NCBI GenBank assembly: GCA_035280185.1
Contig: DATEGH010000116.1
Span: 1 to 51,158 of the forward strand
Length of the DNA: 51,158 bases
Reading direction: 5' to 3'
DNA from: Terriglobales bacterium
GTDB lineage: Bacteria > Acidobacteriota > Terriglobia > Terriglobales > Acidobacteriaceae
Position 1 is the first letter of the stretch. The number at the start of each line of letters is the position of its first letter. A model generated the notes under the pieces. It worked only from the letters and a program-made list of their open reading frames with translations, was not told where the DNA came from and did not search any database. The translations under genes were made by a program, and so were the position numbers. Positions 9,549 through 51,158 of the stretch are shown here, one piece after another.

Positions 9549-9549
9549 C

Positions 9550-9640: not shown

Positions 9641-9652
9641 AAGGATTTGACC

Positions 9653-10150
9653 ATGCGCCATCGCAATGCAACCAAGAAACTCGGACGAAACACAAGCCAC
9701 CGGCGCGCGCTGCTGCGCAACCTGGTGACCTCGCTCATCATGGAAGAGCGGATTGAAACCACGCCGGCCAAAGCCAAAGCCATGCGCCCGCATGTGGAAA
9801 AGATGATCACACTGGGCAAACGCGGCGACGTGCCAGCCCGGCGGCTCGCGCTCGGCTATCTGATGACGCGCGAATCCGTTGACCGGCTTTTTGATACCGT
9901 TGCGCCACGCTTCGGCGACCGTAACGGCGGCTATCTGCGCATCATTCACAAAGGCTGGCGGACGGGCGACGGCGCGGAGACCTGCTTCATCGAACTGCTG
10001 GGCAGCGAGAAAGTCATCGAGGCCAAGCGGGCCAAGCGGGCGGAAATCCGGGCCAAGCGTCAGGAAGAAATCCGCAAGCAAATGGAAGAAGAGCAGGCCC
10101 AGACCGGCGCCACGCCAGAACAGGGCGGCGGCGAAGAAGAAAACAAGTAG
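9653..10150 (+). CDS. rplQ: 50S ribosomal protein L17, with long charged C-terminal tail
   Basis: MRHRNATKKLGRNTSHRRALLRNL. I prefer the ATG at 9653 (AAGGA 7 nt upstream) over the track's TTG at 9647. Confidence 0.93.
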   Translation: MRHRNATKKLGRNTSHRRALLRNLVTSLIMEERIETTPAKAKAMRPHVEKMITLGKRGDVPARRLALGYLMTRESVDRLFDTVAPRFGDRNGGYLRIIHKGWRTGDGAETCFIELLGSEKVIEAKRAKRAEIRAKRQEEIRKQMEEEQAQTGATPEQGGGEEENK

Positions 10151-21186: not shown

Positions 21187-21197
21187 CACTCGTCTCC

Positions 21198-33775: not shown

Positions 33776-36391
33776 ATGAAACGGTCTTCCGGGACTCTGG
33801 CTTTGTTGCGCGTTTTTGTGGGCGCAGTTCTGGTGATTGCAGGCCTCGGCTATTACGCGCACGTTCGTGCCCAGAGTAACGACAATAATCCTAGTGGAGT
33901 AGGTTCCGTTATTGTTCCGCTGCGACCCCTGGCTCCGTTGTCCAGCGTTCCTGTTCCTCCCGTCTTCGGAATTGAAGGCATCGTTGCCGACAAAACCGCG
34001 GCGATCGAGCTGGGGAAAACTCTGTTTTGGGACATGCAGGCGGGCAGCGACGACATTCAAGCTTGCGCAAGCTGCCATTTCAATGCGGGCGCAGACAGCC
34101 GCGTACAAAACCAAGTCAACCCCGGCCAGGCCGGCGGTGACAACACTTTCCAGTTGGGCGTGAACATCAACGGTTCTGTTGGCCCGAACTACCACTACAA
34201 AGCAGGAAGTCCGGACGCCGGTTTTGGCGGCTACCATGACGGCGATTTCCCGTTCCGCAAAGTTGCGAACGAGAACGACCGCTTCAGCGTGATTTCCGAC
34301 GTTAACGACGTTTCCGGTTCCCAGGGAATCTTCCCGATGACCATGGGCCAGATTATTGTTGGCCGCCAGCGCCGGGACGGCTCCGTGGCGGGTAACAACG
34401 GCGCTCATGCCGGCGACAACAACTCGCCCGACCCCACAAACAACAGCGACCTGCCTCTGCGTGGTAATAACCCGCACAATTCCTCACCGAACGCTGCAGG
34501 GTCGTCTCACTTTTCCACGACACATGGTTCCACTTCAACCGGCGGCGGCTCGCGCGTGAGCGTGATCGGCAGCGACGTGACCAGCGCGGAAATTGATAAC
34601 CCAGTGGTTGACCCGGTGTTCTCTTATCCCGATCCAGCCAACCCGGGCGCGCGAATCAATACACGCAGGACGGGAGGCCGCAACGCTCCCAGTGTGGTGG
34701 ACGCGGTCTTCAACTATCGCAATTTCTGGGACGGCCGCGCGCAGAACGTCTGCAACGGCAACAATCCCTTTGGCGCGCGTGATAAGACAGCGCACCTCGC
34801 GGTGATGGAGCCCGATGGAACTCTCGGCGCCGCTCTGGTCAACATGGACAATTCCGCGCTGTGCTCGCAGTCGCTGGGACCGATCCTCAGCAACGCGGAG
34901 ATGTCGGCCGACGGCCGCAACCTGGCCCAGGTGGGAAGAAAGCTTCTGGCGCGCAAGCCGCTGGCCAAGCAATTCGTCGATCCCACGGACAGCATTCTGG
35001 GATCATTCTCCGCTGCTCCTGCGAATGGATTGACGGCCACCTATCCAGCGTTGATTGAGAAGGCGTTCCAGCCGGAGTGGTGGAACTTCAATCTCCACGT
35101 TTGCGAAGCGACGGACGGCAGCATCGCCTCCACCATCAACCCGGACAGAGGCAGATGTCCCTCCGGCACCACCGAGTACAGCCAGATGGAGTACAACTTC
35201 TCGCTCTTCTGGGGAGTTGCCATCCAGATGTACGAGAGCACGCTGATCGCAGATCAGACTCCGCTGGATAAGTATCTGGAGCAGCAAACCACATACACCC
35301 TGATCGGTGACAATCTTACTAATCAGTACACGATTCAACTGAAGCCCGGCGTTACTCCGTACACGATCTCGATCATTGGCCTGAACCCGACGCTCGATGC
35401 CAGCGATCAGGACATGTTTGCCTTCGACGATGGACAGGGCGTGATCCGCGGCGTCGGAGTGAACGGGGGCAGCATTAACTATGCAACCGGCACTTTGACC
35501 GTCTTCTTCGGCGAGCCGCCGGTATCTGAGGTTCCAGTCAAGATCGCCTATTCGAACGGCCCCACACCACTTACGCAGTCGCAGCTCCGCGGGCTGAATA
35601 TCTTCCAGACCAAAGGCCAGTGCGTGGTTTGCCACGGCGGGCCGGAGCTCTCGAACGCAACCGTCGGCACCGTCGGCGACGTGCCGGTGGAGCGCATGAT
35701 CATGGAAGACGATAGCGCCCGCGTGTATGACACCGGCTTCTACCACATCGGAATCCGGCCGACCGCGGAAGATGCGGGCTTGGGCGGGACCGATCCGGTC
35801 GCGGGCATGCCGCTGTCGCAAGCGGAAGTTCTGCGTGAAGATGCCTGCAAGGGCGGATTCGAGACAGTACTCGTTCCGGGACGCCGCGGTGATGGAATCG
35901 CAGCCTCTCCGATGAACTGCTCCGATCCGATTGCGCGCGGCGGCTTCTTCAAAGCTCCGCAGCTCCGCAACGTGGCGCTCACGGCTCCTTACTTCCATAA
36001 CGGAAGCCGTCTGACGCTCGAACAAGTGGTTGAGTTCTATAACCGCGGCGGCGATTTCAACACTGTAGATGAAGTCCAGTACATGGACCCCGACGTCGAG
36101 ATGCTGGGGCTCACCCGGCAGGATGAAGAGGACCTGGTGGACTTCCTGCGCAACGGCCTCACCGATCAACGCACGGTGAATCAGGCTGCGCCCTTCGATC
36201 ACCCGCAGTTGTTCACTCCGAACGGCCACCCTGCGGACAGCAACGGCTACCCGGTACAGAAAGATCCGCAGCATCCGGCTCAGGCCACAACCCAGTTTTT
36301 GGAAGTACCGGCGACCGGGGCCAACGGCGGCAAGCCGCTGCCAACCTTCTTAGAGAACCTGTTGGGGGTGAGCAATGCCAACCCGAAATAG
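33776..36391 (+). CDS. expanded di-haem cytochrome c peroxidase / MauG-family protein (871 aa)
   Basis: Signal peptide. CASCH at 34064-34078 and CVVCH at 35621-35635. [63 protein letters not shown] family motifs. Confidence 0.85.
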
Positions 36392-36500
36392 GTTCAGCGC
36401 AAGCCGCTGCTACTGGCCGCAGAGCCAGACGCAGCTATGTCCGGGAGAAAAAACAAAAAGCAGTGCCAGCAAATTGCAGCATGACGGAAGGAGCTTCAAA

Positions 36501-39203
36501 ATGAGGGGATTTGAGCCAACAATCAACAACTTCAGGGTAGCGGGGATTGTACTGCTGCTGCTGGTAATCGCGGCCCTGGGCGGCACATCGTCAGCCCAGA
36601 GCCTGAATCCAGAGCCGTGGCCCACGCCGGCCGCCATCCCGGCGCCGACGCCGATCATACCCGCGCGCGGCGGAGAGCCTACAGGCTTTCTTCAGATGGG
36701 TTTTATTCAATACGCGTCGCTCGATGCCACGCCGGGGCTTTGCAACAAAGACGATAATCCTGCGCCGACGCCGGCAAATCCCCCCTTGCCCGCGCAGTGC
36801 AAAATCACCGCCGGCTGGATAGAGCTCAACAACACACTCATTCGCGTGCCGCAGAGTACGGTGGTTTACTTTCCCAACACGCTGCTTACGTGGGAGGAAG
36901 CATTTGAGTTGAACCCGAATACCCACCAGACAGATCCCGTATTTCAGACTGGTCTGGCAATGGCCGACACCGTGCGCTTCCCCGGCACCTACGAAGCCCA
37001 AGTTCAGGGCAACATTGTCAACGGCCAGTATATTGCCGGCATTATCTACATCGCAGAGAGTCTTGCCGCCGGCGATGGAAATATTCAGGGATTCATTGAG
37101 AAGTTCGACTACGCCAACGGTATTTTTTACGTTAATGGAACTCGGGTGCAGATGAATGATCCTCGACTCACCATCACCGTTCCCAATCCCGATGGTACGC
37201 CTGCCACGGACGCCAATGGCAATCCAATCGTATTGACGAAAGGGCGCCAGAGCGCCGGGCAATCTGCTGATCCGCGGTTCGCCATTGACCAGAACAATCC
37301 TTCGGTCACGGGAGAGACCGGCTACCCGATGTGTATCCCGCAGACCAGCCCCTATATTGATGGCTCGGATGGTTCGGAAGGCGCCGCGCTGACTCTTCTC
37401 CTTCCTGATGCTCAGCAAGATTCGCAGTGTCCGGAGAAAAACCGTCCTCGCGATGCGGAAAGCGGCACACTCCTGCTGCCCATCTTCACCATGAATGCGC
37501 CGGGAGCCGCGCCCACAACAGATAACCCGATTCCTCAAGATCCGTATTCAGAGATGCCGTTTGAAGTCGGAGATTTCGTGAACGTTGTCGGCAATCTGGA
37601 GGTTGATGCGAACGGTCCATACATTACGGCGACGGACATCGAAGACACCAGCGTCGGCGCCTATACCTGGCCGAATACTGATCCTGCCTACGTCCGCATC
37701 AACGTAACCATTGAAGGAACCGGTGGCGTTCCCTCGCCTTTCTTCCCGCAAGAAGCCGGTGTGCGCACCAGGGTGGAAGGTTTCAGCACCGATCCGCAGC
37801 GCACCGTGGATGTTTCCGCCATAGACCAGGATTGCAACGGCAACCTGACCTTCCGCGAGCCTGCATGGGCCGCGAACTTCCCGGTGGAACCTGGCGTACC
37901 CGGTATTGGCGTGAAAGGCCGCTGGCGCATGCGTTTCCCGCAAGGCGGCAAGTTCGAGCCTGCGGTGCAGAACATCGGCGCCCGAATCAGCGGTGGCGTT
38001 CCCGGCAAAATGACCAGCGGAGTTACTTATGACGAGTACCAACTGCCTGTACAAGTGCTGATCTTCCCGGAAAACCTGGTTCCCGGCAGCCAGCCGCCGA
38101 AGGCCAATTTTGGGGACGTCCTCTACCTGGACAACGGCATGGGACAGTTGCCGATGGTCAGCGACGTGTTCGATAGCGATCAGGTCCAGTTGGGCCTGCA
38201 AGCGGCGCCGTTCTATCCCAACCAGCTCATGGGGCAGTTGAATCCTTTCCCGGATGCAACGCTGCCTCCCATCACTTGTATTCCGGGGACGTTCTCCTCG
38301 ATCGCGGTGCCGAAGTTCACTTCGAATCCGAATCCGCCGTTTGCCGGCATTACAGTTACGCTGGATGGAACTGCGAGTAATCCGCCAACAGGACCCTTCG
38401 CCTGGACACAAGTCATCAACCCCGGCGATCCGATTGTGACCATCAACAACCCGAACACGGCAAAGCCGACGTTCATCGCGCCGACTGTGGCCGGGCCGCA
38501 GAACATCGTCTTCCAGTTGATCGTGGGTGGAGACGGAGTTGTTCCGGCTTCCGCGCCTGCAACGGTCAGCGTGCCGGTTGTGATTGCTCCGCCGAATACG
38601 CCGCCTGCGCTTAGCGCCACGGCATCGTTCGCTGGACCGCCGGCTGTGAGCGGAACCGCCATCAGCGTGCCCAGCAACGCCGCAGGCGTAACACTGACGG
38701 CAACGGGTGTGGATCCCGCAGGTGGAACGATCACTTATACGTGGTCCGGTCCTGCCGGAGTCGTGTTGACCCCGGCCGCAGCCGATGGCTCGGTGCAGAC
38801 TTTCACCGCGCCTGAGGTGCCGGAACTGACCGCAGCTCAGACCCTGACCTTCACTGTGACGGGCACGAGCTCCAACGGTGGATTGACCGGCACTGCCACA
38901 GTCACTGTGACCGTGGAGCCTGTGACGGACCGCATCGTCATCAGCAACGTGGTCTATCGCCGGACCAAGGGACGCCTCATCGTCAACGTCAGCGACTTTA
39001 CGCCGAACGTAACGCTGACTTGCACGCTGGACATCATCAATCCGGCAACAGGACTGCCGTGGTCGGGCGTGATGGGACCGATTAACCCATTCGCTCAGGG
39101 CGTGTTCTCGATCCGCTTCAGCAACATCCCGGCGCCAAACCTGGTGACTATCACCTCGAGCGCGGGTGGTGTCGCAACCTCGGGCGTCACCTTCCTGAGG
39201 TAA
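36501..39203 (+). CDS. secreted hypothetical protein (900 aa) with two C-terminal PKD/Ig-like domains
   Basis: Start trimmed to MRGFEPT... (GGAAGGAG upstream, signal/TM segment GIVLLLLVIAALGGTSSAQS). C-terminal ITVTLDGTASNPP... and VTLTATGVDPAGGTITYTWSGP... Ig-like repeats. The N-terminal ~600 aa are unassigned. Confidence 0.7.
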   Translation: MRGFEPTINNFRVAGIVLLLLVIAALGGTSSAQSLNPEPWPTPAAIPAPTPIIPARGGEPTGFLQMGFIQYASLDATPGLCNKDDNPAPTPANPPLPAQCKITAGWIELNNTLIRVPQSTVVYFPNTLLTWEEAFELNPNTHQTDPVFQTGLAMADTVRFPGTYEAQVQGNIVNGQYIAGIIYIAESLAAGDGNIQGFIEKFDYANGIFYVNGTRVQMNDPRLTITVPNPDGTPATDANGNPIVLTKGRQSAGQSADPRFAIDQNNPSVTGETGYPMCIPQTSPYIDGSDGSEGAALTLLLPDAQQDSQCPEKNRPRDAESGTLLLPIFTMNAPGAAPTTDNPIPQDPYSEMPFEVGDFVNVVGNLEVDANGPYITATDIEDTSVGAYTWPNTDPAYVRINVTIEGTGGVPSPFFPQEAGVRTRVEGFSTDPQRTVDVSAIDQDCNGNLTFREPAWAANFPVEPGVPGIGVKGRWRMRFPQGGKFEPAVQNIGARISGGVPGKMTSGVTYDEYQLPVQVLIFPENLVPGSQPPKANFGDVLYLDNGMGQLPMVSDVFDSDQVQLGLQAAPFYPNQLMGQLNPFPDATLPPITCIPGTFSSIAVPKFTSNPNPPFAGITVTLDGTASNPPTGPFAWTQVINPGDPIVTINNPNTAKPTFIAPTVAGPQNIVFQLIVGGDGVVPASAPATVSVPVVIAPPNTPPALSATASFAGPPAVSGTAISVPSNAAGVTLTATGVDPAGGTITYTWSGPAGVVLTPAAADGSVQTFTAPEVPELTAAQTLTFTVTGTSSNGGLTGTATVTVTVEPVTDRIVISNVVYRRTKGRLIVNVSDFTPNVTLTCTLDIINPATGLPWSGVMGPINPFAQGVFSIRFSNIPAPNLVTITSSAGGVATSGVTFLR

Positions 39204-39212
39204 CCGGAAGAC

Positions 39213-39244
39213 AGGGCTGCCGGGCATCGGGCGCCGGCAGCCCT
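39213..39244 (+). other. GC-rich stem-loop in the intercistronic gap (weak terminator/attenuator or mRNA stabiliser)
   Basis: AGGGCTGCCGG / CCGGCAGCCCT 11-bp stem with a 10-nt loop. The nearest T-run is 13 nt downstream, so this is not a classic terminator. Confidence 0.4.
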
Positions 39245-39328
39245 GAAACACAAAAGTTTTTGTCCCCGCGCCTCGGGCTCGAAGAGCGGGAAACGCAGTA
39301 AACGGATTACAGAAGAGAGGAACCGAAA

Positions 39329-41815
39329 ATGAACTCGAACTTTATGCGGGCCCCTGGCGGCATCGAGCGTCAGCACTCCAAGGAGGGAGCCTTGCTCAAT
39401 CGCAACTCTTTCAAATACATCCTCGGGCTGGTGCTGGTCACGCTGCTCGCGGCATCGGGCGCTTTCGCCACGCCCAGCACGCAGGTGGCGAATGAAGGCT
39501 TGTTCCGTCCGCGCGGCATGGTGCGCTCCACCGTGCCAGATCCCAATGGCGGGCCGGCGCTGCATGACTTCTGGGTCAGCGACGGCGCTTCAGGGTTCTG
39601 CCGCATTGATCGGCTTCCTGACCCGAAATTCCCCGGCAAGACGCATGGCGTCCTGAACCTGAGCACCTGCTATCTCCCTGGCGTGTTCGAGCCAATGGAT
39701 TATCAGGTGGAGACGCTGAATGTGAACGGCTCCAACGGCTATGTGTTCGTGGGCGGGATTAAGGAAATCACCCGTTTGGAATTTATGCCTTCTCCCACCG
39801 AACCTGGCCGCACCGTCATTAATACGGCCACCCAGGTCACGATCTTCAGCAGCGTCAACTCGGTGTTCACCAATGGCGCGCCGGTGAATGGCCCGCGCTT
39901 CGTGCAGAGCCTGAAGCTTGGCCCGGACGGCAAGCTCTATCTTTGCTTCCAGGGCAGCGGTGATATCTGGCGCGTTCTCAATCCTCTTTCTCCCAGCTTC
40001 ACCAAGGCAGGAAATGCGGTGGAGCGCGTGGGAACATCGGACAACGGAAAGACGCTGTTGAGCTTGGCTTGGATCGGGCACGACCTTTGGATGGCCCAGG
40101 CAGGCTTCCTCAACCGCATCCAAAATGCTGACCAATGCAACTACACGCTGCCCAAGTGCCAGGCTGTACTCGAGTTCGGGAAGTTGCAGACCCAGGAAGG
40201 CATGCAGTCCGATCAGTACTTCTCCACCATCCCCAATGGCCGTTGGCTCTATTGGGGTAACGGAAACCGCGTGGTCCGCTTTGATACGCAGAGCGCCGAC
40301 ATCATGCAGGTTTGGAACCAGAGCGGGTTTGTGAATGGCAGCGCCATTCCTCAGGAATACTCGCTTATCATGGGCATTAATTTCATCCAGCGTGATGCCC
40401 CGGTGGCCTTGGCCGATGGCAGCTTCCTTGAAGACATGACGGTGACCACGGACCCCATCATCGAAGCGCCGTTACCTGAAGTGGCCGCCACACTTCCGCG
40501 AACCGGAAGAACGTGGCTGCTGACGGCCCTTCCAACGCTGGTGCCCGAGCCGTGCAATACCACAACCCCGGTGTTCGGGAACTTGAATCCGCCGCCTTGC
40601 GTTAACAGCCAGATCGGTAACGACGCTCCTCCGATTGACTCTCCGCAGTTCAACGCGGCGCGCCGCTCGGTCCTGATGCTGGCGGGGGTCACCCACGCTC
40701 GCGGTTTGATCTTCCTGCAAACCAACTGGTGGATTTCCGATGAAGACAACGGATTCTGCCGCATCGATCTGAATGCGGTCACGGGCGCAGCTTCTATGAG
40801 CAACTGCTTCCAGCCGGCCGGTTTCTGGCCTGGCCAGCCGGCAGCCGATGCACCGGATGCTTCAGGCGCGCAGAATGTTTACGTACCCAACGCCTGCGGC
40901 CTCATCTCCGGATGCACGCTGGGCGGCGGCACGCCGGGGATCATGCGACTGAAGTTTATTCCTGATGGCACCGGTGGAACCGTTTCCCAGACCGGCGTTC
41001 TGAACTCTGGCCGTGGTACGCCTTCGGCGGTTGCGATTCCCAACGGTCCGTTCAACGATGGCGCCGTTTACATCGGTTATTACGACAACGGCAAGATCAA
41101 CAAGGTCCAGCAGCCGGCGACAGCTCCCGGGGCACCACTGCCTGTGGGCGGCCTTTTGAACTCCGTTGGCCTTCTCAGCATGGCCTTCCAAGGCAATGAC
41201 CTGTATATGGCCGAGATCGGACCTCCGGTCCTCAACGGCGGTCAGTTAGTCAAGAAAGGGCAAGTAAGCGTTCTGGTGGCGGCTTCGCCTGACGCATCGA
41301 GAGGCAGCGCTCAGCCGGTGGCAAAGCCGATCTCACGCTTGCAGAGCCCAACTACGGTTGCGACTCCGCAGCTCTTCGTCAACCCCGGCGCGATGGTGGT
41401 TGGCCCTGATGGCGACCGTGAGAGATGTCTGCCTCCCTTGGGTGTGAAGCTCTCAGCCGGTATTCCGGCGGATCCTGGAACGGCCCCTGCTCTCTACATG
41501 GGAGGTTTGGGCCTGCCCGCCGACAGCGCGGTTTCCGGTGGCCTGGCTCAACCGCCTGAGGTTGTCCAGTATGGCTCCATCTGCACCACGATGATTGATT
41601 GGGTGATTGATGGCGCGCTGGATCCCACACTCAGCCTTAACGTGGACCTTGGCCCGGTGACGGCGTTGGCTTTCAACGGCGCCGATTCCACCTCGAACCT
41701 GGCCATCGCGGACGATCCTGGATTGATCATCCCCGATCAGACGCTGCAAAAGAGCCAAGTTACACCGCCGCTGACCGGACTGCACGGTCAAGGGCACGTA
41801 TTCATCGTTCCGTAA
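39329..41815 (+). CDS. secreted hypothetical protein (828 aa), internally duplicated
   Basis: Signal peptide (LVLVTLLAASGAFA). Motif FWVSDGASGFCRIDRL (~39568-39615) recurs as WWISDEDNGFCRIDLN (~40726-40775). No family recognised. Confidence 0.7.
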   Translation: MNSNFMRAPGGIERQHSKEGALLNRNSFKYILGLVLVTLLAASGAFATPSTQVANEGLFRPRGMVRSTVPDPNGGPALHDFWVSDGASGFCRIDRLPDPKFPGKTHGVLNLSTCYLPGVFEPMDYQVETLNVNGSNGYVFVGGIKEITRLEFMPSPTEPGRTVINTATQVTIFSSVNSVFTNGAPVNGPRFVQSLKLGPDGKLYLCFQGSGDIWRVLNPLSPSFTKAGNAVERVGTSDNGKTLLSLAWIGHDLWMAQAGFLNRIQNADQCNYTLPKCQAVLEFGKLQTQEGMQSDQYFSTIPNGRWLYWGNGNRVVRFDTQSADIMQVWNQSGFVNGSAIPQEYSLIMGINFIQRDAPVALADGSFLEDMTVTTDPIIEAPLPEVAATLPRTGRTWLLTALPTLVPEPCNTTTPVFGNLNPPPCVNSQIGNDAPPIDSPQFNAARRSVLMLAGVTHARGLIFLQTNWWISDEDNGFCRIDLNAVTGAASMSNCFQPAGFWPGQPAADAPDASGAQNVYVPNACGLISGCTLGGGTPGIMRLKFIPDGTGGTVSQTGVLNSGRGTPSAVAIPNGPFNDGAVYIGYYDNGKINKVQQPATAPGAPLPVGGLLNSVGLLSMAFQGNDLYMAEIGPPVLNGGQLVKKGQVSVLVAASPDASRGSAQPVAKPISRLQSPTTVATPQLFVNPGAMVVGPDGDRERCLPPLGVKLSAGIPADPGTAPALYMGGLGLPADSAVSGGLAQPPEVVQYGSICTTMIDWVIDGALDPTLSLNVDLGPVTALAFNGADSTSNLAIADDPGLIIPDQTLQKSQVTPPLTGLHGQGHVFIVP

Positions 41816-41841
41816 GCTGCAATCAGCAACCCTCATCAGCA

Positions 41842-41875
41842 GGCCGGCGGCGCAATCCCGCCGGCCATTTTTTTT
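41842..41875 (+). terminator. strong rho-independent terminator
   Basis: GGCCGGCGG / CCGCCGGCC stem, loop CGCAATC, followed by A + 8 T. Confidence 0.88.
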
Positions 41876-42246
41876 GCGAAACTGCTGACCACACTGTGTC
41901 AGGGAGTTTCCAGGAAGAAGCGATCCTTGAAACATCTCTTCTTGAGAAATTACTCGAATACCACCTGTCTGCCACTCTGCCGAACCAGCTCGTACTTCGC
42001 TCCTTGATCGGAATCGCCTCCTGCTCTTCATTAAAACCATTAATTTGCCCTTAACACATCTTTAATCCCGAAGAGATTAACTGTCACACATCGCATTACG
42101 ACGGTCGCACGAAGACGAGTAACAAGCGGCAGAGAAGCAAAACCTTTCCGGGTCTCCGCCAGAAAAAACAAAAGATTTTTTTGAAGGTGGCCAGTTCCGC
42201 TGACTGAACAGGAGCCGCCTGTTTTGGGCACTACCAGGAGAACATC

Positions 42247-42657
42247 ATGATTTCTGCACGGCACATCATCCGCGCGTTGTGTCTCATTGTCGCCTCTTTC
42301 GCCCTGAGCGCCTTCGCCGTTGCGGCGGCGGGCGGGTTCAGCGGCAGCTACAAACTGGGAACTGCCGTAGCTTCTGAGGGCGGAGTCCAGCTCACCATTT
42401 CGCTCGCCATTTCCAACAACACATCCAGCGCCATCAGCAACGCCACCATCTCGCTGCACGAGCCCAGGGCCGCGCGCGTGATTTATGGGCAGCTCGATGG
42501 CGTCTCGCTGCCGGCGGGCGCGCGCACAGAGGTGAGCGGCTCTTTCACCGTGCCCCAGGACCTTTACGACTCCTGGAAAAAAGGAAGTTCTCCGGCCATG
42601 AGCGTCAGCTTCACGGACGCCAAGGGTAATCCGGTTCGGGCCTTTATCGAGTTCTAG
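42247..42657 (+). CDS. small secreted hypothetical protein (136 aa)
   Basis: Signal peptide (LCLIVASFALSAFAVAAA) and beta-rich composition. Ends 26 nt before the giant gene. Confidence 0.6.
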   Translation: MISARHIIRALCLIVASFALSAFAVAAAGGFSGSYKLGTAVASEGGVQLTISLAISNNTSSAISNATISLHEPRAARVIYGQLDGVSLPAGARTEVSGSFTVPQDLYDSWKKGSSPAMSVSFTDAKGNPVRAFIEF

Positions 42658-42683
42658 CAAAGATTCTGTTGGGGAGGCACGCC

Positions 42684-45600
42684 ATGCGGGCGGCTAACAA
42701 TATTTTCGTCTCAAAAACACAAACGGCAACAGCAAGGATCTTCAAGGCCGGCGCGTATTCGCTGCTGGCTGTTCTGTTGCTTGTGGCATTCGTGTTTCCA
42801 TCAAGCGCGCTGGCGCAGACCAGCTACGTTTATGTGAACAACCAGACCTCGAGCAACGCAGTCTCGATCTACCGCGCTTCTGCCACGGGCAGCCTTTCCG
42901 CGGTGGGAACTCCGGTGCTCACCGGCGGTCTGGGCGCAAACGTTGTCTGCTACGGCTTGAATCGCATCGCGCTGAGCCAGACGAACAACCTCCTGTTTGT
43001 GGCGAACACGGGCGACCGCACCATCACTGCGTTTCAGATCAATCCCGCAACCGGCACGCTCACGCGCACCGCGGGCTCACCGTTCCCCAGCGGACTCACG
43101 GCCGATAGCTGCCAGGGATTCTCGCTGGCTGTGACTCCCGATGGCCAGTTCCTGATGGCTTCCAGCAACGGGCAGATTCGCACGTTCAGCGTGGCGGCAA
43201 ACGGAGCGTTGACTTTCCTCAGCAGCACCGCGAACTGCTGCTCGCCCAACTCCGGCATGACCATCTCGCCCGATGGCCGCCTTCTGGCGGTTTCTAACGA
43301 GACGAGCGTCTCCATGTTCTCCATCAGCGGCGGCGTGCTGACTCCGGTGCTGGGATCTCCATTTCCCAGAACAGGCACAGGCAATATTTCCGGCCTCGAT
43401 TTCAGTTGTGCGGCTGACCGTCTCTACGCCGGTGAAGCTACCGGCAGTCCAGCGCAAGCGGATGGTTGGACGGTGGACCTCAATGGCGCGCTGACTCCTG
43501 CTCCGCTGTCTCCGTTCCAGAGTTCGGGCAGCAACTCCAACATGGTGGTCTACAGCCCCGACAATACGTTGATATTCCAGAGCAACCAGTTCAGCAACAG
43601 CATCAACTCGTTTGTAGTAAACCCTGACGGCAGTCTTACCAACGCAGGCAAATTCGGCGGCTCAACTCAGGTACACACTCCAGTGGGAATGGCTACAGAT
43701 GCTACCGGGACATTCCTGTTTGTGGCGGACGATAGCTTTGGAGTAGCGGCTTTCCGGATCGGCAACGGAGGCGTCCTTGCCTGGTTGAGCGACTTGGCCA
43801 TCAGCCGTCCGGGAGAAATCCAGGACCTCGCAGTCTATCCCGCGCGTTCCTGCGCCAGCGCCGATCTCGCGCTGACGATGACAGCGGTTCCCAATCCCGC
43901 GCCTTCAGGCGCTCCCATTCAGTACACCCTGAACATCACCAACAATGGCACGCCTGCGGCATCTGCTGTGGTGGCGGACACGCTTCCGCCCACGCTCTCC
44001 GCAGGCGGCAGCGCGCAGATCGCGAACCCGAGCGGAGCACAGCGCGTCAACACAGTTTCAGGAACAACCGTCAGCGGCGTAGTCACGATTACAACGACTG
44101 TCCCGCATCAGCTTGTCGCAGGCCAGACGGTGACGGTCGCATCAGTGCCGGCGCCCACGACTCCGAATCCAATCCAGCAGGGCTTCTTCCTTACCGATCC
44201 TGGATTCAACGGCGTCGTCAAAATCGTATCGGTTCCCAGCCCCACAAGCTTCACGTATAACCAGACGCTTCAACTCTCGCAGTTTCCTAAGCCGTCGTTG
44301 AACATCGTCGCATCAACTGGGGCACAGCGTCTCGCCGGAACTGTGACCATCACGGCGACAGTGCCGTTCCAGCTTACGCCGGGAACGTTGATGACGATTG
44401 CGGGCGTCGCAAACACGAGTTTCGATGGAACATTTGCAGTAGCATCACAGCCCTCTCCCACGACGTTTACTTATGCCCAGGCAGGACTCGATGCCGTCAG
44501 CGGTGGCGGAACAGCCACAGCGCCCGTCAATGTGCCGGCCACTGATGTTGCCGGAGGCGGCAGCATGAGCAGCGCTGCCTGCCAGGTGACGCTCGGCACG
44601 GGGACCTGCGGCACTGCCAGCTTTGCTCCTCGGCCGCCAATCGTAACAGCAGTTCGCGCGAGCAATGTCGTCACCATCACAACGCCGGTGCCACACCAGC
44701 TCTTCCCCGGACAGAAAATCACCATTCAGGGCGTGACGGACACGACCTTCAACGGCACATTCACGATTGTCGATACGCCTTCGGCCACGACGTTCACCTA
44801 CAACCAGACAGCGGCCGACGCCAGCAGCAAGGGCGGCGCCGTCCTGGCGGCTGCAACCACAGCCCAGTTGATTACGTTCAACGCTCTCAGGGCCGGCGAG
44901 ACCCGCACTGCGCTGATCACGGCCACTTCCTCAAGCACGGTGGCCAATGGCACGGTGATAAGCAACACGGCGGCCATCACCAATAAATCCGTGGTCGATC
45001 CGAACCCTGCCAACAACTCGGCGACTGTGGATGTGACCATCGGCGCGGCAAGCGGAACCAGCCTTACGGTTCCGACCGCTACCGGTCCCTACGGCGGAGT
45101 GGCCGTGGTGAGTGCGATTCTTAAGGACAGCACCGGTGCGCCGATCGCAGGCGAAACCATCGGCATCAACTTCAACCAGAACAACAGCCAATACAACGCG
45201 ATTACAGACGGCACCGGAACGGCAACCGTTTCCGTCCCGCTGGGTTTCACCACAGTGGGCACGCATGCTGCAGCATTCACCGCCACCTTCGGCGGCGACG
45301 CCACACATTCCGCCAGCAGCGCCACGGGCGATCTGATTGTGACCAAGGCGCAGTTGACTGTAACGGCCGACAATCAGGCGCGGCTCTATGGCGATCCCAA
45401 TCCGCCGCTGACTTACACCATCACCGGTTTCGTGAACGGCGATACCATCGCGGTTGTAAGCGGCGCGGCTGATTGCTCGACCACAGCTACGCTGACCAGT
45501 CCGGTGGGAGCTTATCCGATTACTTGCACCATCGGCACCCTTGCCGCGCAGAACTACGTCTTCGTCTTCGTGCCTGGAACTCTCACAGTCAATCCCGCGC

Positions 45601-48600
45601 CTCTGACGGTGAACGTGGCCAACGCGACGCGTGCCTACGGCGATCCGAATCCGTCATTCACTGGAACGATTGTCGGCATCAAGAACGGTGACAACATCAC
45701 GGCCACCTACAGCACGACCGCGACCATCACCAGCCCGGTTGGGAATTACCCAATCACGGCGACTCTCTCTGATAACGGCACGGGCGCGCTGGCGAACTAC
45801 ACTATCACCATCAACAATGGCACGCTGACGGTTACTCCCGCCGCCCTGGTCGTGACTGCGAACAACGCAGCCCGGCTCTATGGCGATCCGAATCCGCCAT
45901 TCAGCGGCACCATCGCCGGCATCAAGAACGGCGACAACATCACCGCGATTTACACGACTCCGGCAACACCAACCAGCCCCATCGGCAGCTATCCGATTAT
46001 TCCTACGCTGACGGACAATGGCACCGGCGCGCTGGCGAACTATGTTGTCACGGCCAACAACGGATCGTTGACGGTTAGCGCTGCACCTCTCACCGTGACC
46101 GCAGCTGATGCGACGCGTCCGTATGGCCAGCCGAACCCGGTGTTCACCGGCACGATTGTCGGAATCAAGAACAACGAGAACATCACTGCCACCTATAGCA
46201 CCGCTGCAACCGTGACCAGCCCGGCGGGAACGTACCCAATCGTGCCCACGGTTTCTGACAACGGCACCGGCGTGCTGGGCAACTATTCCGTCACTCTCGT
46301 GAACGGAACTCTCACCGTGACGCAGGCAGTTCTTACCGTTACGGCAAACAGCGCCAGCAGGCTCTATGGCGATCCCAACCCGGCCTTCACCGGAACGATT
46401 ACGGGAATCGTAAACGGCGATAACATCACCGCGACTTACGCGAGCGCCGCTGATCCAACCAGCCCGGTGGGAACGTATCCAATCGTGCCCACGCCTTCTG
46501 ATAACGGAACCGGCGCGCTGGCCAACTACAGTGTGGTGCTCGTCAATGGCGTTCTGACTGTGAATCCCGCGCCGCTGACCGTAACAGTGGCGAGCGTGAG
46601 CCGTGTCTATGGCGATCCCAACCCGGTGTTCAGCGCCACGATTGTCGGCATCAAGAACGCTGACAACATCACGGCTTCGCTGACCACAACTGCAGACCCA
46701 ACCAGCGCAATCGGAACCTACCCAATCGTGGCCACACTGGTTGATCCCACGAGCAAGCTGGGCAACTACACAGTAACGATCAACAACGGCACGCTGACCA
46801 TCACTGCTGCTCCGCTGAGCGTTACGGCCGGCAATGCCAGCCGTCTCTTCGGAACGGTAAATCCGCCGCTGAGCGGCATCATCCTGGGAATCAAGAACGC
46901 TGATGCCATTTCGGCGACGTATGCCACAACCGCTGTCGCTACCAGCCCCGTGGGAACGTATCCCATTACGCCTACGCTGGTTGACCCGGCAGGCAAGCTC
47001 GCCAATTACACCGTCACGTCCAACAACGGAACTCTGACGGTGAACGCAGCGCCGACAGCAAACTTCGTCTTCGTCAACAACCAGGCTGCAACCGGCAACA
47101 GCATCAACGGCTACTCAGTCGCGGCTGATGGCTCGCTGACCGCGCTGGCCGGTTCGCCTATTGCCGCCGGTGGACTCGGCGCCAACGCTGTCTGCTCCTC
47201 GGTGAATCGTTTGGCCCTGAGCGCCGGCAACAATCTGCTGTTTGTTTCCAACGGCGGCGACCAGACCATCAGCGCCTTCCAGATCAATCCTGCAACCGGC
47301 GCGTTAACCGCAGCGGGAGCGCCTGTTGCCTCTGGCTTGACGCTCGATGCATGCTCCGGCATCTCGCTGGCGGCGACACCTGACGGCCAGTACCTGATGG
47401 CCTCCAGCAACGGCCAGATCAAGACCTTCAGCATCGGCGCAGGTGGAGTGCTCACGGCTGTTTCGACTGCTGCGAACTCGGCTCTGCCCAACGCGGCGAT
47501 GAAGATCTCCGCCAACGGAAAGTTCCTGGCGGTCTCGAACCAGACCAGCGTTTCCGTTTACGCTATCAACGGCGATGGTTCGCTGACTGCGGTCGCGGGC
47601 TCGCCCTTCGCCGAGACCGGCACGGCGACTCTCGCCGGGCTCGACTTCAGCTCCACCAGCGGCCTGCTCTTCGGTGCAGAAGCCAGCGCAACTTCCTCAC
47701 TGGCTGACGCGTGGACCGTCGCAGCGAACGGCGCGCTTGCCGCGGTTACGGGCAGCCCGTTCAGCATCGGCGCGATCAACTCCAGCACCGTTCTCCTAAG
47801 CCCGAATGATGCCTTCCTGTTCGCCGCCAATCAGGGCAGCAGCAGCGTGAGCGCATTCAGCGTGGCGGGCGGAAGCCTCACCAGCATCGGCAGCTTCGGC
47901 AGCGCAGCTTCACTGCATGCTCCTGTGGGCTTGGCGACCGACCGCTCCGGCACTCTGCTCTACGTGGCGGATGACACCTTCGGCGTGGCAGTGTTCCAGG
48001 TGGGACTCACCGGTTCGCTCTCGCAACTTGGCGACACCGCCATCAGCGGCGCAGGCCAGGTGCAGGCGCTGGTTGCCTATCCGCCGCGCATGACCAGCTC
48101 GGCTGACATGAGCGTCAGCGTCACCGCAGCTTCGCCCAATGTCGTGGCCGGTCTGAACGTGACCTACACGATTACCGTGACCAACAACGGAGCTGATCCG
48201 GCTTCGGCGACTGTGAGCGATACGCTGCCCACAGGCTTCAGCGTGGTTTCCTGCGCGGCAACCGGCAACGGCGCGTGCATCGGCAACACCGGCGCGGCCA
48301 GCTTCTATCTGTTGCAGAGCGGCGAAACACAGACTGTAACCCTCGTGGCGCAGACCAGCCTCTCGATTCCGGATGGAACTATCGCGACCAACACCGTCAA
48401 CATCAGCAACAGCTCGGCGATTGATCCCAACGCGGCGAACAACTCAGCCAGCGTAAATGTCACAGTCGCCCAGCCGATCACCACAGTTACCACCGTTGCG
48501 GCAGCCAGCGGGATTTACGGCGGCAGCACGACTCTTTCCGCCACGCTGAAAGACACACTCGGCAATCCAATCGCAGGCAAGACGCTCAGCTTCTCGCTGA

Positions 48601-51158
48601 ATGGCGTCTCGGTCGGCAGCGCTGTAACTGACGCAACCGGCTCAGCCTCAGTGCCTGCCAGCCTGGTGGGTATCGCGGCCGGCACGCACGCCGGAGCCAT
48701 CGCGGCCGCTTTTGCCGGAGATCCCAACAACAAAGCTTCAAATGGCGCAGCAGACCTGACCATCACTCCCGCGGTCCTGACCGTTACTGCGACTGATGCG
48801 AGCAGGCTCTACGGCGATGCGAATCCAACCTTCGCCTTCACCTTCTCCGGATTCGTCAATGGCGAAACCTCAGCCGTCCTCACGGGCAGCCCGGCCTGCA
48901 CCACTACGGCCGATCCGACCAGCGTTGTGGGAACTTACCCCATCACCTGCTCCATCGGAACGCTCGCGGCGGCGAACTACACGTTCACCTTCGTCAATGG
49001 GACCCTGACCATTACCCAGGCCCCGTTGACCGTCACAGCGGCCAACGTAAGCCGGCTCTATGGCGATCCTAACCCAACGTTCACAGGAACCATTACCGGC
49101 ATCAAGAACGCTGACAACATCACCGCTGTTTATGCCACCACAGCCACGGTGACGAGTTTGGTGGGAACGTATCCCATCACTCCCGGATTGGTTGATCCCG
49201 CAGGTAAGCTGGGCAACTACGCGGTGACTTCCAATAACGGAACGTTGACCGTGACGCCCGCGCCTTTGACGGTAACCGCCGCCAATGCGACGCGCGCGTT
49301 CGGCGCGGCCAACCCGGTCTTCACCGGCTCGATCGCGGGCATCAAGAACGCTGACAACATCAGCGCCACCTACAGCACGACGGCGACTGCCACCAGCCCG
49401 GTGGGAAGCTATCCCATCACGCCTGCACTGGTTGATCCCACGGGCAAGCTGGGCAACTACGCGGTGACTTTAGTGAACGGCACCCTCACGGTCACCAACT
49501 CTGTGCTGACCGTGACCGCGGCCAACGCATCGCGGCTGTACGGCGATGCCAACCCCGTGTTCACCGGCACCATCACGGGAATCCAGAACGGTGACAACAT
49601 CACTGCCACCTATGCCAGCACAGCTACGCCAACCAGCGCCGTGGGAACTTATGCCATTGTGCCCACGCTGTCTGACAATGGCACCGGCGCTCTGGCCAAC
49701 TACACGGTAGTGGTCAACAACGGAACTCTGACCGTAAACCAAGCTCCGTTGACGGTGACGGCGGCGAACGCCAGCCGTCTCTACGGTGCAGCGAACCCGG
49801 CCTTCACCGGAACCATTACCGGCTTGAAGAACACCGATAACATTACAGCCACTTACGCCACCACGGCGACGGCGGCCAGCAACGCGGGAACCTATCCCAT
49901 CACGCCCACGCTGGTTGATCCCGCCGGCGTGCTGCCCAACTATGCTGTCACCATCACCAATGGAACTCTCACCGTGACCCAGGCTCCGCTGAGCGTCACG
50001 GCGGCGAACGCCTCGCGCGTGTACGGTGACGCGAATCCGACCTTCACTGGAACCATTACCGGCTTGCTGAACGGGGACGTGATCACGGCCACCTACAGCA
50101 CCACGGCAACTCCGGCGAGCGCAGTCGGGACCTATGCCATTACTCCAACCCTGGTTGATCCGAACGGCAAGCTGGGCAACTACGCGGTGACTTCCAATAA
50201 CGGAACGTTGACGGTGACGCCCGCGCCCTTGACGGTAACCGCCGCCAATGCGACGCGCGCGTTCGGCGCAGCCAACCCGGTCTTCACCGGCTCGATCGCG
50301 GGCATCAAGAACGCTGACAACATCAGCGCCACCTACAGCACCACGGCGACTGCCACCAGTCCGGTGGGAAGCTATCCCATCACGCCCGCACTGGTTGATC
50401 CCACGGGCAAGCTGGGCAACTACGCGGTGACTTTAGTGAACGGCAGCCTCACGGTCACCAACTCCGTGCTGACGGTAACGGCCGCGAACGCCAGCCGCTT
50501 CTATGGCGATGCCAACCCCGTGTTCACCGGCACCATCACGGGAATCCAGAACGGTGACAACATCACTGCCACCTATGCCAGTGCGGCCAGCGCAACCAGC
50601 GTTCCTGGCGCATACGCCATCGTGCCCACGCTTTCTGACAACGGTACCGGCGCTCTGGCCAACTACACGATCGTAGTCAACAACGGCGTGCTCACGGTAA
50701 ATGCTGCACCTCTGACGGTTACGGCAGCGAACGCCACCCGTCTCTACGGCGCGGCGAATCCGGCCTTCACTGGCACCATCACTGGACTGAAAAACGGTGA
50801 TGCTATTACTGCTTCCTACACCACCGTTGCCGATCCGACAAGCACCGTCGGCAGCTACCGGATTACTCCGGTCCTCAGCGACCCAACCAACAAACTCAGC
50901 AACTATGCTGTCACGCTGGTGAACGGGACCCTTACGGTCGCTCAGGCTCCTCTCACCGCCACGGCCAACAACGCGACGCGCGTCTATGGCGATCCCAACC
51001 CGGCGTTCACCGGAACCATCACCGGCCTGGTGAACGGCGATAACATCACCTTCGGAGCCACCAGCGCAGCTCCAACGGCTGCGGTCGGAACTTACCCGAT
51101 CGTACCCGCGCTGGTTGATCCCAACGGCAAGCTGGTGAACTACACGCTGACTTCGAAC
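42684..51158 (+). CDS. giant secreted repeat protein, 3'-partial (>=2,825 codons): 2 x [lactonase-type beta-propeller / DUF11-like / Ig-like / MBG array]
   Basis: ATG at 42684 with GGGGAGG at 42671-42677. My translation of this frame stayed open to the last base of the window. Signal peptide ...FPSSALAQT. Absent from the ORF track because no stop codon is reached. Confidence 0.9.
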   Translation, partial: MRAANNIFVSKTQTATARIFKAGAYSLLAVLLLVAFVFPSSALAQTSYVYVNNQTSSNAVSIYRASATGSLSAVGTPVLTGGLGANVVCYGLNRIALSQTNNLLFVANTGDRTITAFQINPATGTLTRTAGSPFPSGLTADSCQGFSLAVTPDGQFLMASSNGQIRTFSVAANGALTFLSSTANCCSPNSGMTISPDGRLLAVSNETSVSMFSISGGVLTPVLGSPFPRTGTGNISGLDFSCAADRLYAGEATGSPAQADGWTVDLNGALTPAPLSPFQSSGSNSNMVVYSPDNTLIFQSNQFSNSINSFVVNPDGSLTNAGKFGGSTQVHTPVGMATDATGTFLFVADDSFGVAAFRIGNGGVLAWLSDLAISRPGEIQDLAVYPARSCASADLALTMTAVPNPAPSGAPIQYTLNITNNGTPAASAVVADTLPPTLSAGGSAQIANPSGAQRVNTVSGTTVSGVVTITTTVPHQLVAGQTVTVASVPAPTTPNPIQQGFFLTDPGFNGVVKIVSVPSPTSFTYNQTLQLSQFPKPSLNIVASTGAQRLAGTVTITATVPFQLTPGTLMTIAGVANTSFDGTFAVASQPSPTTFTYAQAGLDAVSGGGTATAPVNVPATDVAGGGSMSSAACQVTLGTGTCGTASFAPRPPIVTAVRASNVVTITTPVPHQLFPGQKITIQGVTDTTFNGTFTIVDTPSATTFTYNQTAADASSKGGAVLAAATTAQLITFNALRAGETRTALITATSSSTVANGTVISNTAAITNKSVVDPNPANNSATVDVTIGAASGTSLTVPTATGPYGGVAVVSAILKDSTGAPIAGETIGINFNQNNSQYNAITDGTGTATVSVPLGFTTVGTHAAAFTATFGGDATHSASSATGDLIVTKAQLTVTADNQARLYGDPNPPLTYTITGFVNGDTIAVVSGAADCSTTATLTSPVGAYPITCTIGTLAAQNYVFVFVPGTLTVNPAPLTVNVANATRAYGDPNPSFTGTIVGIKNGDNITATYSTTATITSPVGNYPITATLSDNGTGALANYTITINNGTLTVTPAALVVTANNAARLYGDPNPPFSGTIAGIKNGDNITAIYTTPATPTSPIGSYPIIPTLTDNGTGALANYVVTANNGSLTVSAAPLTVTAADATRPYGQPNPVFTGTIVGIKNNENITATYSTAATVTSPAGTYPIVPTVSDNGTGVLGNYSVTLVNGTLTVTQAVLTVTANSASRLYGDPNPAFTGTITGIVNGDNITATYASAADPTSPVGTYPIVPTPSDNGTGALANYSVVLVNGVLTVNPAPLTVTVASVSRVYGDPNPVFSATIVGIKNADNITASLTTTADPTSAIGTYPIVATLVDPTSKLGNYTVTINNGTLTITAAPLSVTAGNASRLFGTVNPPLSGIILGIKNADAISATYATTAVATSPVGTYPITPTLVDPAGKLANYTVTSNNGTLTVNAAPTANFVFVNNQAATGNSINGYSVAADGSLTALAGSPIAAGGLGANAVCSSVNRLALSAGNNLLFVSNGGDQTISAFQINPATGALTAAGAPVASGLTLDACSGISLAATPDGQYLMASSNGQIKTFSIGAGGVLTAVSTAANSALPNAAMKISANGKFLAVSNQTSVSVYAINGDGSLTAVAGSPFAETGTATLAGLDFSSTSGLLFGAEASATSSLADAWTVAANGALAAVTGSPFSIGAINSSTVLLSPNDAFLFAANQGSSSVSAFSVAGGSLTSIGSFGSAASLHAPVGLATDRSGTLLYVADDTFGVAVFQVGLTGSLSQLGDTAISGAGQVQALVAYPPRMTSSADMSVSVTAASPNVVAGLNVTYTITVTNNGADPASATVSDTLPTGFSVVSCAATGNGACIGNTGAASFYLLQSGETQTVTLVAQTSLSIPDGTIATNTVNISNSSAIDPNAANNSASVNVTVAQPITTVTTVAAASGIYGGSTTLSATLKDTLGNPIAGKTLSFSLNGVSVGSAVTDATGSASVPASLVGIAAGTHAGAIAAAFAGDPNNKASNGAADLTITPAVLTVTATDASRLYGDANPTFAFTFSGFVNGETSAVLTGSPACTTTADPTSVVGTYPITCSIGTLAAANYTFTFVNGTLTITQAPLTVTAANVSRLYGDPNPTFTGTITGIKNADNITAVYATTATVTSLVGTYPITPGLVDPAGKLGNYAVTSNNGTLTVTPAPLTVTAANATRAFGAANPVFTGSIAGIKNADNISATYSTTATATSPVGSYPITPALVDPTGKLGNYAVTLVNGTLTVTNSVLTVTAANASRLYGDANPVFTGTITGIQNGDNITATYASTATPTSAVGTYAIVPTLSDNGTGALANYTVVVNNGTLTVNQAPLTVTAANASRLYGAANPAFTGTITGLKNTDNITATYATTATAASNAGTYPITPTLVDPAGVLPNYAVTITNGTLTVTQAPLSVTAANASRVYGDANPTFTGTITGLLNGDVITATYSTTATPASAVGTYAITPTLVDPNGKLGNYAVTSNNGTLTVTPAPLTVTAANATRAFGAANPVFTGSIAGIKNADNISATYSTTATATSPVGSYPITPALVDPTGKLGNYAVTLVNGSLTVTNSVLTVTAANASRFYGDANPVFTGTITGIQNGDNITATYASAASATSVPGAYAIVPTLSDNGTGALANYTIVVNNGVLTVNAAPLTVTAANATRLYGAANPAFTGTITGLKNGDAITASYTTVADPTSTVGSYRITPVLSDPTNKLSNYAVTLVNGTLTVAQAPLTATANNATRVYGDPNPAFTGTITGLVNGDNITFGATSAAPTAAVGTYPIVPALVDPNGKLVNYTLTSN
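42822..43859 (+). other. beta-propeller module A (lactonase-like)
   Basis: YVYVNNQTSSNAVSIY..., LLFVANTGDRTITAFQINPATGTL, TPDGQFLMASSNGQIRTFSV, SPDGRLLAVSN..VSMFSI blade pattern. Confidence 0.7.
44019..44864 (+). repeat. three copies of an unassigned ~50-aa core repeat inserted in DUF11-like domain A
   Basis: VTITTTVPHQLVAGQTVTV...SPTSFTYNQT / VTITATVPFQLTPGTLMTIAGVANTSFDGTFAV..PSPTTFTYAQA / VTITTPVPHQLFPGQKITIQGVTDTTFNGTFTIVDTPSATTFTYNQT. Confidence 0.75.
45345..47045 (+). repeat. MBG-type (YG-x-PNP) domain array A, 7 units of ~240 bp
   Basis: Each unit has LTVTA.NA.R.YGDPNP.FTGTI.GI.NGDNITA.Y.T.A..TSPVG.YPI.P.L.D......NY.V...NGTLTV. Confidence 0.85.
47061..48101 (+). other. beta-propeller module B (paralogous to module A)
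   Basis: FVFVNNQAATGNSINGY..., LLFVSNGGDQTISAFQINPATGAL, TPDGQYLMASSNGQIKTFSI. Roughly half the residues are identical to module A by eye. Confidence 0.7.
48765..51158 (+). repeat. MBG-type domain array B, >=10 units, continues beyond the window
   Basis: Same ~80-aa unit as array A. Units 3-4 and 7-8 are near-identical at the DNA level (963-bp offset). Confidence 0.85.

Follow-up and report, generated by a model that had tools for sequence, protein, structure and literature searches.

A giant gene cut by a contig end in a Candidatus Angelobacter-like soil acidobacterium encodes an apparently exported protein of β-propellers and MBG repeats

The window analysed here, a 51,158-nucleotide (nt) stretch from a Terriglobales bacterium, ends in a reading frame that opens at an ATG at position 42684 of the forward strand and runs to the last base, 51158, without a stop codon. 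The locus raises two questions: whether this frame is a gene, and what a protein of such length and repetitiveness might do for the cell. The first can be answered plainly, since the frame is confirmed as a genuine gene cut by the contig end. Direct translation and a script both found zero stops over 2,825 codons (8,475 nt), as a previous reading of the letters alone (the sequence-only reading) had counted, and no in-frame stop had been overlooked from the ATG onwards. The other five frames of the same interval contain 23–193 stops each, and the probability of a stop-free frame at the lowest of these rates is about e^-23. The G+C contents at codon positions 1, 2 and 3 (0.53, 0.57 and 0.73) fit a coding sequence. 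There is an upstream in-frame stop 18 codons before the ATG, and the earlier placing of the start 6 nt after GGGGAGG agrees with the window sequence. The frame makes up 17% of the window. It had been hidden from the list of open reading frames (ORFs), as the sequence-only reading had recognized: the list has no forward-strand entry after 42657 because ORFs running off the source were not listed, and ORF tracks that drop stopless frames can hide the largest gene of a contig. The window is chromosomal, with SecY, RpoA, a class II aminoacyl-tRNA synthetase and Ddl among its genes, and the frame covers the 5' ~80% of the giant gene, whose source is a soil acidobacterium of the Candidatus Angelobacter type (Terriglobales). 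To the second question our current answer, to which we assign a probability of about 0.6, is that the gene product is a fibrillar adhesin-like or matrix protein, exported by Sec and disulfide-bonded, that carries propeller heads on MBG stalks.

The giant protein consists of a signal peptide and two supermodules, each with the order seven-bladed propeller of lactonase/YVTN type, DUF11/CLIPPER domain, Ig-like domain and MBG_2 array. Its parts, with amino acid (aa) positions in the protein, are as follows.

42671-42677, forward strand: Shine–Dalgarno sequence GGGGAGG, its GGAGG motif kept in orthologues
42684..51158, forward strand: giant coding sequence, 5' complete and 3' truncated (2,825 codons; 2,851 on the identical contig L001, still open)
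42684..42815, forward strand: Sec-type signal peptide, aa 1-44 (...PSSALA, then QTSY), judged from the sequence by eye
42816..43859, forward strand: β-propeller 1, aa ~45-392, of the Lactonase PF10282 type (71.3 bits)
43860..45083, forward strand: DUF11/CLIPPER domain 1, aa ~393-800, split by an insertion (38.3 bits in 2 stretches)
44049..44873, forward strand: insert in DUF11 domain 1, aa ~456-730, three E1_FCCH-like repeats of ~60-90 aa, ~270 aa in all (18 bits, below cut-off)
45084..45350, forward strand: Ig-like domain 1, aa ~801-889 (Big_3_5, 21.3 bits, below threshold)
45351..47051, forward strand: MBG_2 array 1, 7 units, aa 890-1456, the first unit a Cys-pair variant
47052..48083, forward strand: β-propeller 2, aa ~1457-1800 (70.2 bits; TM 0.83 to 6nau), with the junction ...TVNAAPTANFVFVNNQ kept in orthologues
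48105..48461, forward strand: DUF11/CLIPPER domain 2, aa 1808-1926, with the pair Cys1857/Cys1865 (78.9 bits)
48486..48773, forward strand: Ig-like domain 2, aa ~1935-2030 (Big_3_5, 34.1 bits, just below threshold; seen also in an AlphaFold2 model)
48774..51158, forward strand: MBG_2 array 2, 10 full units, aa 2031-2825 (an 11th unit begins in L001)

The Pfam cut-offs applied were 25 bits for MBG_2 (PF18676), 21.7 for Lactonase (PF10282), 24.6 for DUF11 (PF01345), 35.5 for Big_3_5 (PF16640) and 29.5 for E1_FCCH (PF16190). In a Pfam scan of the giant protein MBG_2 reached 960 bits over 17 stretches, and both propellers and both DUF11 domains, including the split first one, also score above their cut-offs, so that membership of these three families is clear. 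The Ig-like domains fall short of the Big_3_5 cut-off, and orthologues carry precomputed PF16640 matches. The insert falls short of the E1_FCCH cut-off and is labelled FCCH-like only; two orthologues have precomputed E1_FCCH matches, and the FCCH-like copies in orthologues number 2–4. Hidden Markov model (HMM) searches thus left the domain list of the sequence-only reading (lactonase-type propellers, DUF11-like and Ig-like domains, 17 MBG repeats) essentially right, and added the two-fold supermodule layout and the FCCH-like insert, which it had missed. Its signal peptide is supported both by inspection (a basic n-region, a hydrophobic core and a cleavage site between ALA and Q) and by the orthologues, which keep the hydrophobic core and an AQAQ site. 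The aligned MBG units, of ~72–80 aa, share the pattern R-x-[YF]-G...NY...G-x-L-T-V, each array opening with a variant unit set apart by a 5-aa insert and a Cys pair, and the heads (propeller plus DUF11) of the two supermodules are 48% identical to each other. All 16 cysteines lie in intradomain pairs, and the protein is rich in Thr, Ala, Gly, Val, Ser and Asn with very few charged residues; the cysteine pairing and the composition fit an exported protein.

The first 905 aa, used as the query of a protein search, gave matches in Acidobacteriota, mostly Candidatus Angelobacter, under the database names 'MBG domain-containing protein', 'beta-propeller fold lactonase family protein' and '6-phosphogluconolactonase (cycloisomerase 2 family)'; the giant gene belongs to an uncharacterized family already in public databases, auto-named with the first of these. 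The close relatives found in this way (58–72% identity) contain the FCCH-like insert and are all cut at contig ends, and the partial orthologues P0010 and P0026 span the junction between modules 1 and 2 (...TVN[AP]APTANFLFVNNQAA). Complete genes were found in a scan of GTDB with one genome per species, in which parts were assigned with HMMs derived from the domains of the window gene. This gave 23 Angelobacter/Terriglobia loci, about 14 of them with a stop-bounded frame (2,574–4,142 aa). The complete orthologues have the same order of parts, most with two supermodules, L005 and L010 with three and L025 with one; their MBG units number 13–26 in total and 6–19 in the final array, and the junction ...TVNAAPTANF[LV]FVNNQAA is in-frame in more than 15 genomes. 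Because complete orthologues share the fused architecture and the conserved junction, the supermodule fusion is, on this comparison, real and not an artefact. The third in-frame supermodule of L005 (4,142 aa) and L010 (3,998 aa) has its propeller at aa ~2522-2892, and L016, at 81% identity to L005 across the first 2,530 aa, has two supermodules only, so that supermodule copy number shifts between related species. The contigs of L009 and L011 are 0.45 and 3.25 Mb long and, from their names and sizes, look like long-read assemblies. On a further contig of long-read style, L036 (ENA ERZ25039520 contig_9083), a related giant gene is split into pieces of 1,300, 347, 191, 105 and 425 aa, breaks that are probably homopolymer or frameshift errors and not real pseudogenization.

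The second group of relatives is a large family whose members are complete at ~1,390 aa and have one supermodule each. Those from Terriglobia (P0075, P0076 and P0085; 50–55% identity) have the same order of signal peptide, propeller, DUF11, Big_3_5 and MBG array, and share the neighbourhood of the giant gene (CCP_MauG-like, PKD and 828-aa genes), but differ in having a single supermodule without the FCCH-like insert, no gene for a 136-aa partner protein upstream, and a distinct ~150-aa Cys-containing C-terminal domain in place of the terminal MBG unit ending ...TLTLQ. This conserved C-terminal domain (P0075, P0076, P0085, P0066 and L024) reads ...CSNGPGHQILAPI...VQFRVCDAKG...FQFRLN and is absent from the giant form. 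Among 1.84 billion representatives clustered at 50% identity, only the clusters P0361 and P0362 have an internal match to the head region, and the fused multi-supermodule form is therefore limited to a narrow clade. The giant form stands out in that whole supermodules of head and stalk are duplicated in-frame, DUF11 contains the FCCH-like insert, the ...TLTLQ end is conserved, and a partner gene accompanies it.

How the protein ends can be judged from the 13 complete orthologues with a readable C-terminus, all of which finish identically in a conserved terminal MBG variant (...ITASYSTTAD.TSPAGTYPI.PS.DPNPLL.NY.VTLINGTLTLQ) followed by a stop and no further domain; the genes 3' of the orthologous giant genes are not conserved. 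The anchoring or sorting signal that had been expected beyond the window finds no support in these ends. The contig extension that the sequence-only reading called for was possible in part: L001 extends 80 nt past the window, where an 18th MBG unit begins, and no stop is reached. The last 330 aa of the window are colinear with L012, L007 and L017 at 80–84% identity, and those proteins run ~700 aa further. From this colinearity we infer a total of ~3,550 aa (~10.6 kb) for the window gene, whose remaining ~700 aa would comprise ~8–9 more MBG units ending in ...TLTLQ, without a sorting domain.

An AlphaFold2 model of aa 1440-2125, built with 35 homologues, has a mean predicted local distance difference test score (pLDDT) of 88.6 and contains the propeller, two β-sandwiches and an MBG domain; propeller 2 is seven-bladed (pLDDT ~90), and the Big_3_5 region models as an Ig-like sandwich. 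In Foldseek searches the propeller matched the 6-phosphogluconolactonase folds 6nau and 1ri6 at a template modelling (TM) score of 0.83, as well as muconate-lactonizing enzyme, an archaeal surface-layer YVTN propeller plus PKD fragment (1l0q, expectation value E 2e-13), and integrin alpha ectodomains, which match the head-on-leg layout (E ~1e-12). A sequence search of the PDB gave a weak match to 6nau (E 0.0025) and nothing useful for the MBG or DUF11 parts, the CLIPPER structure 9IFR not being retrieved. These matches raise the possibility that the protein is an extracellular or periplasmic enzyme, with catalytic propellers (lactonase or cycloisomerase-like) and with the MBG, Ig and DUF11 domains as tether or spacer. 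The Lactonase scores lie above cut-off, the best structural matches are enzymes, and some databases name relatives as 6-phosphogluconolactonase. We nevertheless consider a catalytic role unlikely. Identity to the solved enzymes is only 15–20%, and identification as 6-phosphogluconolactonase was rejected, the NCBIfam equivalog NF008258 scoring 57 bits against a cut-off of 370. 6-Phosphogluconolactonase is a cytoplasmic enzyme of the pentose-phosphate pathway, whereas the giant protein has a signal peptide and paired cysteines; moreover, the same fold is a non-catalytic module in 1l0q, and stalk repeats make up about two thirds of the giant protein.

Our working hypothesis, that of a fibrillar adhesin-like or matrix protein, is that after export by Sec and cleavage of the signal peptide, disulfides would form between the paired cysteines. 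The MBG arrays would then act as semi-rigid stalks of ~4–5 nm per unit, as in CdrA of Pseudomonas aeruginosa, giving the whole protein a length of the order of 100 nm, and would space and present the two propellers (elsewhere one to three) as ligand-binding heads. By analogy the propellers are candidate binding heads, and the 136-aa β-sandwich protein encoded upstream, which would probably be co-translated, may act as an anchor, cap or chaperone. MBG and DUF11 are both described as stalk domains of fibrillar adhesins (PMC9210967), and CdrA, whose MBG_2 repeats number 15, reaches ~71 nm on cells (PMC9704523). Both CdrA and the giant protein are long extracellular proteins with tandem MBG_2 repeats (15 and at least 17, respectively) of presumed stalk role (PMC9704523; bioRxiv 10.64898/2026.07.13.738186). 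CdrA, however, is a two-partner-secretion (TPS) substrate with an N-terminal TPS/β-helix head and the transporter CdrB, whereas the giant protein has a Sec signal peptide and propeller heads, one of them internal. No Pfam match to a TPS domain or to an adjacent TpsB (the CdrA/FHA type) was found in the giant protein or its neighbours, which places it outside the two-partner-secretion class, and no Pfam match to RTX repeats was found in the giant protein, which with its N-terminal signal peptide also falls outside the RTX/type I secretion system (T1SS) adhesins.

A fibrillar adhesin in the sense of Monzon et al. has a tandem-domain stalk, an adhesive domain and a surface anchor or sorting motif (PMC9210967 / PMC8286594). 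The giant protein has the stalk, with at least 17 MBG_2 units as well as DUF11 and Ig domains; an anchor or sorting motif was not found, complete orthologues ending in an MBG unit and the window being without the 3' end. In periscope proteins, length varies through tandem repeats of very high DNA identity (PMC9704523). MBG number varies from 13 to 26 among the orthologous species; the units of the window gene have a median nucleotide identity of 65%, with only one pair (u10/u14) at 97%.

The stalk domain DUF11, now CLIPPER, occurs in surface proteins and is CnaA-like, often with a Lys–Asn isopeptide bond and, in Acidobacteriota, often with disulfides (PMC12617251). The giant protein shares with the CLIPPER stalks (PDB 9IFR; PMC12617251) the DUF11 Pfam match, the CnaA-like sandwich and the intradomain Cys pair common in Acidobacteriota, but the CLIPPER stalks are tandem arrays and the giant protein has one DUF11 per supermodule. 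Of the isopeptide triad K715/D748/N806 of 9IFR, Asp and Asn are kept, and in place of Lys module 2 has Val and module 1 has Met; counted from the Asp of VSDTLP, Val or Met stands at residue -33 and Asn at +57, with spacing taken from PMC12617251 and not from a structural alignment. Because the triad Lys is replaced, no isopeptide bond is expected in these DUF11 domains, which would set them outside the isopeptide-bonded subclass. The archaeal surface-layer protein 1l0q is similar to the giant protein in being secreted and in having a seven-bladed YVTN/lactonase-type propeller followed by Ig-like domains, and differs in being archaeal and much shorter, in having no MBG arrays, and in an identity of 15%. 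Integrin alpha ectodomains also have a seven-bladed propeller head on an Ig-like leg, an analogy of layout only, since the integrins are eukaryotic, heterodimeric and membrane-anchored, with 9–11% identity.

The likeness to 1l0q also suggests another possibility, namely that the protein is a structural scaffold of the envelope or matrix (S-layer-like or of a biofilm matrix) without specific ligand binding. DUF11 proteins are found among archaeal S-layer-associated proteins and aggregation factors (PMC12617251), and sequence conservation is uniform, with no variable tip. On the other hand, no self-assembly or anchoring module was identified, the occurrence in two 50%-identity clusters would be odd for a core envelope component, and repeat and supermodule numbers differ widely among relatives. 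A purely structural scaffold therefore also seems to us improbable.

Several results weigh against a fibrillar adhesin-like or matrix protein. The giant protein has no recognized adhesive Pfam domain, and its propellers are not hypervariable tips but are conserved to a degree similar to the stalk. The orthologues show neither an anchor nor a sorting signal, and no dedicated secretion system (TpsB, T1SS or usher) was found in the window or the orthologous flanks examined, so that nothing seen there accounts for surface localization in a diderm cell. The 136-aa partner is absent in L006, L011 and L022, and in L009 and L010 it looks degenerate. Short-read metagenome-assembled genomes (MAGs), in which repeat numbers may be collapsed, are the source of most orthologues. 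The true 3' end of the window gene was not recovered, since all routes of extension failed: a search for longer contigs by the exact sequence of the 136-aa neighbour gave only L001, still open; the last 30 residues, searched for as a degenerate codon pattern, had no match in the metagenome contigs of the Joint Genome Institute (JGI); and a protein search with the last 352 aa gave no near-identical fragment, the best match (P0136, 80%) being from another organism, on contig L036. A partner protein 95% identical to that of the window (P0241) lies on contigs that end 275–827 aa into the giant gene.

The region upstream of the giant gene contains the following features.

42247..42657, forward strand: 136-aa secreted partner, a signal peptide and a ~105-aa seven-strand β-sandwich, of no Pfam family
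41842..41875, forward strand: terminator-like hairpin (9 G–C pairs, 7-nt loop; 41842-41866) with a T-run, closing the upstream 828-aa gene
33776-41815, upstream of the terminator: three large genes, of 871, 900 and 828 aa, with N-terminal signal-like sequences

The secreted 136-aa protein and the terminator at 41842 had both been described by the sequence-only reading and are borne out. The end of the 136-aa ORF is 26 nt from the giant ATG, in 14 orthologous loci the 136-aa gene is the immediate upstream neighbour of the giant one, and orthologues with a callable start have GGAGG before the ATG at ~25 nt past the 136-aa stop (41 nt in L025). Co-transcription of the two genes is plausible. The 136-aa family comprises 135 proteins, all of ~135 aa, without a Pfam family and all called 'hypothetical'. 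Its model (pLDDT 86.7) shows a signal helix and a seven-strand β-sandwich, for which a fold search gave generic β-sandwich matches only (ApaG, TRAP subunits and GH3 Fn3-like domains; TM ~0.4). In L009 (5201-5584) and L010 (6237-6764) a short ORF upstream of the giant gene begins with a similar signal peptide (MTSARSVFLYLCV...) and then diverges; these ORFs are probably degenerate or frameshifted remnants of the partner. A scan for sigma-70-like promoters, which is uninformative for Acidobacteria, found none upstream of the 136-aa gene, and an Rfam scan of the 431-nt leader found no riboswitch or known RNA. A match to the Salmonella small RNA STnc310 at 41831-41882 on the reverse strand was rejected, scoring 27.4 bits against a gathering threshold of 40 and lying exactly on the terminator hairpin; it is almost certainly due to chance. 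In a relative from a JGI metagenome (L037; 81–87% nucleotide identity) a segment of ~925 nt (8865-9788) with a 242-aa TauE-like gene (PF01925) lies between the 828-aa and 136-aa genes, where the window has ~150 unrelated nt (41877-42027), an indel immediately after the terminator.

Of the three large genes, the first encodes a di-haem CCP_MauG/RoxA-like cytochrome (871 aa, with CxxCH at aa 97 and 616), the second a protein with a PKD domain (900 aa), and the third an 828-aa protein without a Pfam match, in which the motif GFCRID occurs twice as an internal duplication. Taken from its mechanical ORF start (36375), the PKD gene would run into the end of the 871-aa gene (36391); gene callers on L001, the identical contig, place its start at 36501, giving 900 aa and a clear signal peptide. 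About 20 kb away, on the reverse strand (18141-22427), are a MacB-like permease pair (FtsX/MacB_PCD) and a HlyD-family membrane-fusion protein of efflux type, and there is no evidence of a link between this system and the giant gene. In at least 10 Terriglobia loci the 871-, 900- and 828-aa genes keep their order, in synteny with the giant gene or with its one-module paralogue. It is tempting to speculate, and we regard this as a long shot, that the giant protein is part of a clade-specific extracellular apparatus with the di-haem cytochrome and the PKD, 828-aa and 136-aa proteins. In such an apparatus the propellers would bind or process an insoluble soil polymer that the haem protein would attack oxidatively, and the supermodules would be a new 'beads-on-a-string' multi-head display, the fibre being held to the cell by the small partner and not by a classical sorting signal.

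The repeat array had been suspected of being an assembly artefact, a worry that is largely answered. L001, an independent contig from ENA, matches the window at 100% identity across 18.9 kb, as does the Logan contig L002 across 7.0 kb, so that three independent assemblies agree in the part they share. The MBG units have a median DNA identity of ~65%, the giant coding sequence contains no stretch of 101 nt or longer that recurs exactly, and ratios of non-synonymous to synonymous substitution (dN/dS) between units are 0.06–0.25, which indicates purifying selection on the repeat units. For these reasons mis-assembly inside the window is unlikely; in addition, the architecture and the junction recur in many MAGs, including Mb-scale contigs. 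Array 2 contains a four-unit segmental duplication (48985-49832 and 49948-50795; 84% nucleotide identity). Within it, in sequence otherwise ~81–84% identical, units u10 and u14 (49263-49502 and 50226-50465) are 97% identical in DNA and 99% in protein, which looks like a local gene-conversion tract. All contigs of the source organism break inside the array, and these ends most probably reflect a graph branch deeper in it. That the frame is itself an artefact (fused tandem paralogues of ~1,400 aa, a short-read mis-assembly or a pseudogene) can, we think, be dismissed as very improbable, for although complete one-supermodule proteins abound and every contig of the organism breaks in the array, supermodule 2 has no signal peptide of its own, its junction is in-frame across genomes, the assemblies agree, and the divergent units are under purifying selection with zero stops in 2,851 codons.

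Candidatus Angelobacter is an abundant genus of soil Acidobacteria. The present analysis describes a family of giant secreted proteins specific to it, with in-frame duplication of supermodules (1–3 copies), a conserved end without a sorting signal and a small partner gene of their own. Giant repeat proteins built of MBG and DUF11 domains are common, and current understanding of them is not overturned. If the proteins described here are surface fibres, they would have a bearing on how uncultured soil bacteria attach to particles, polymers and other cells.

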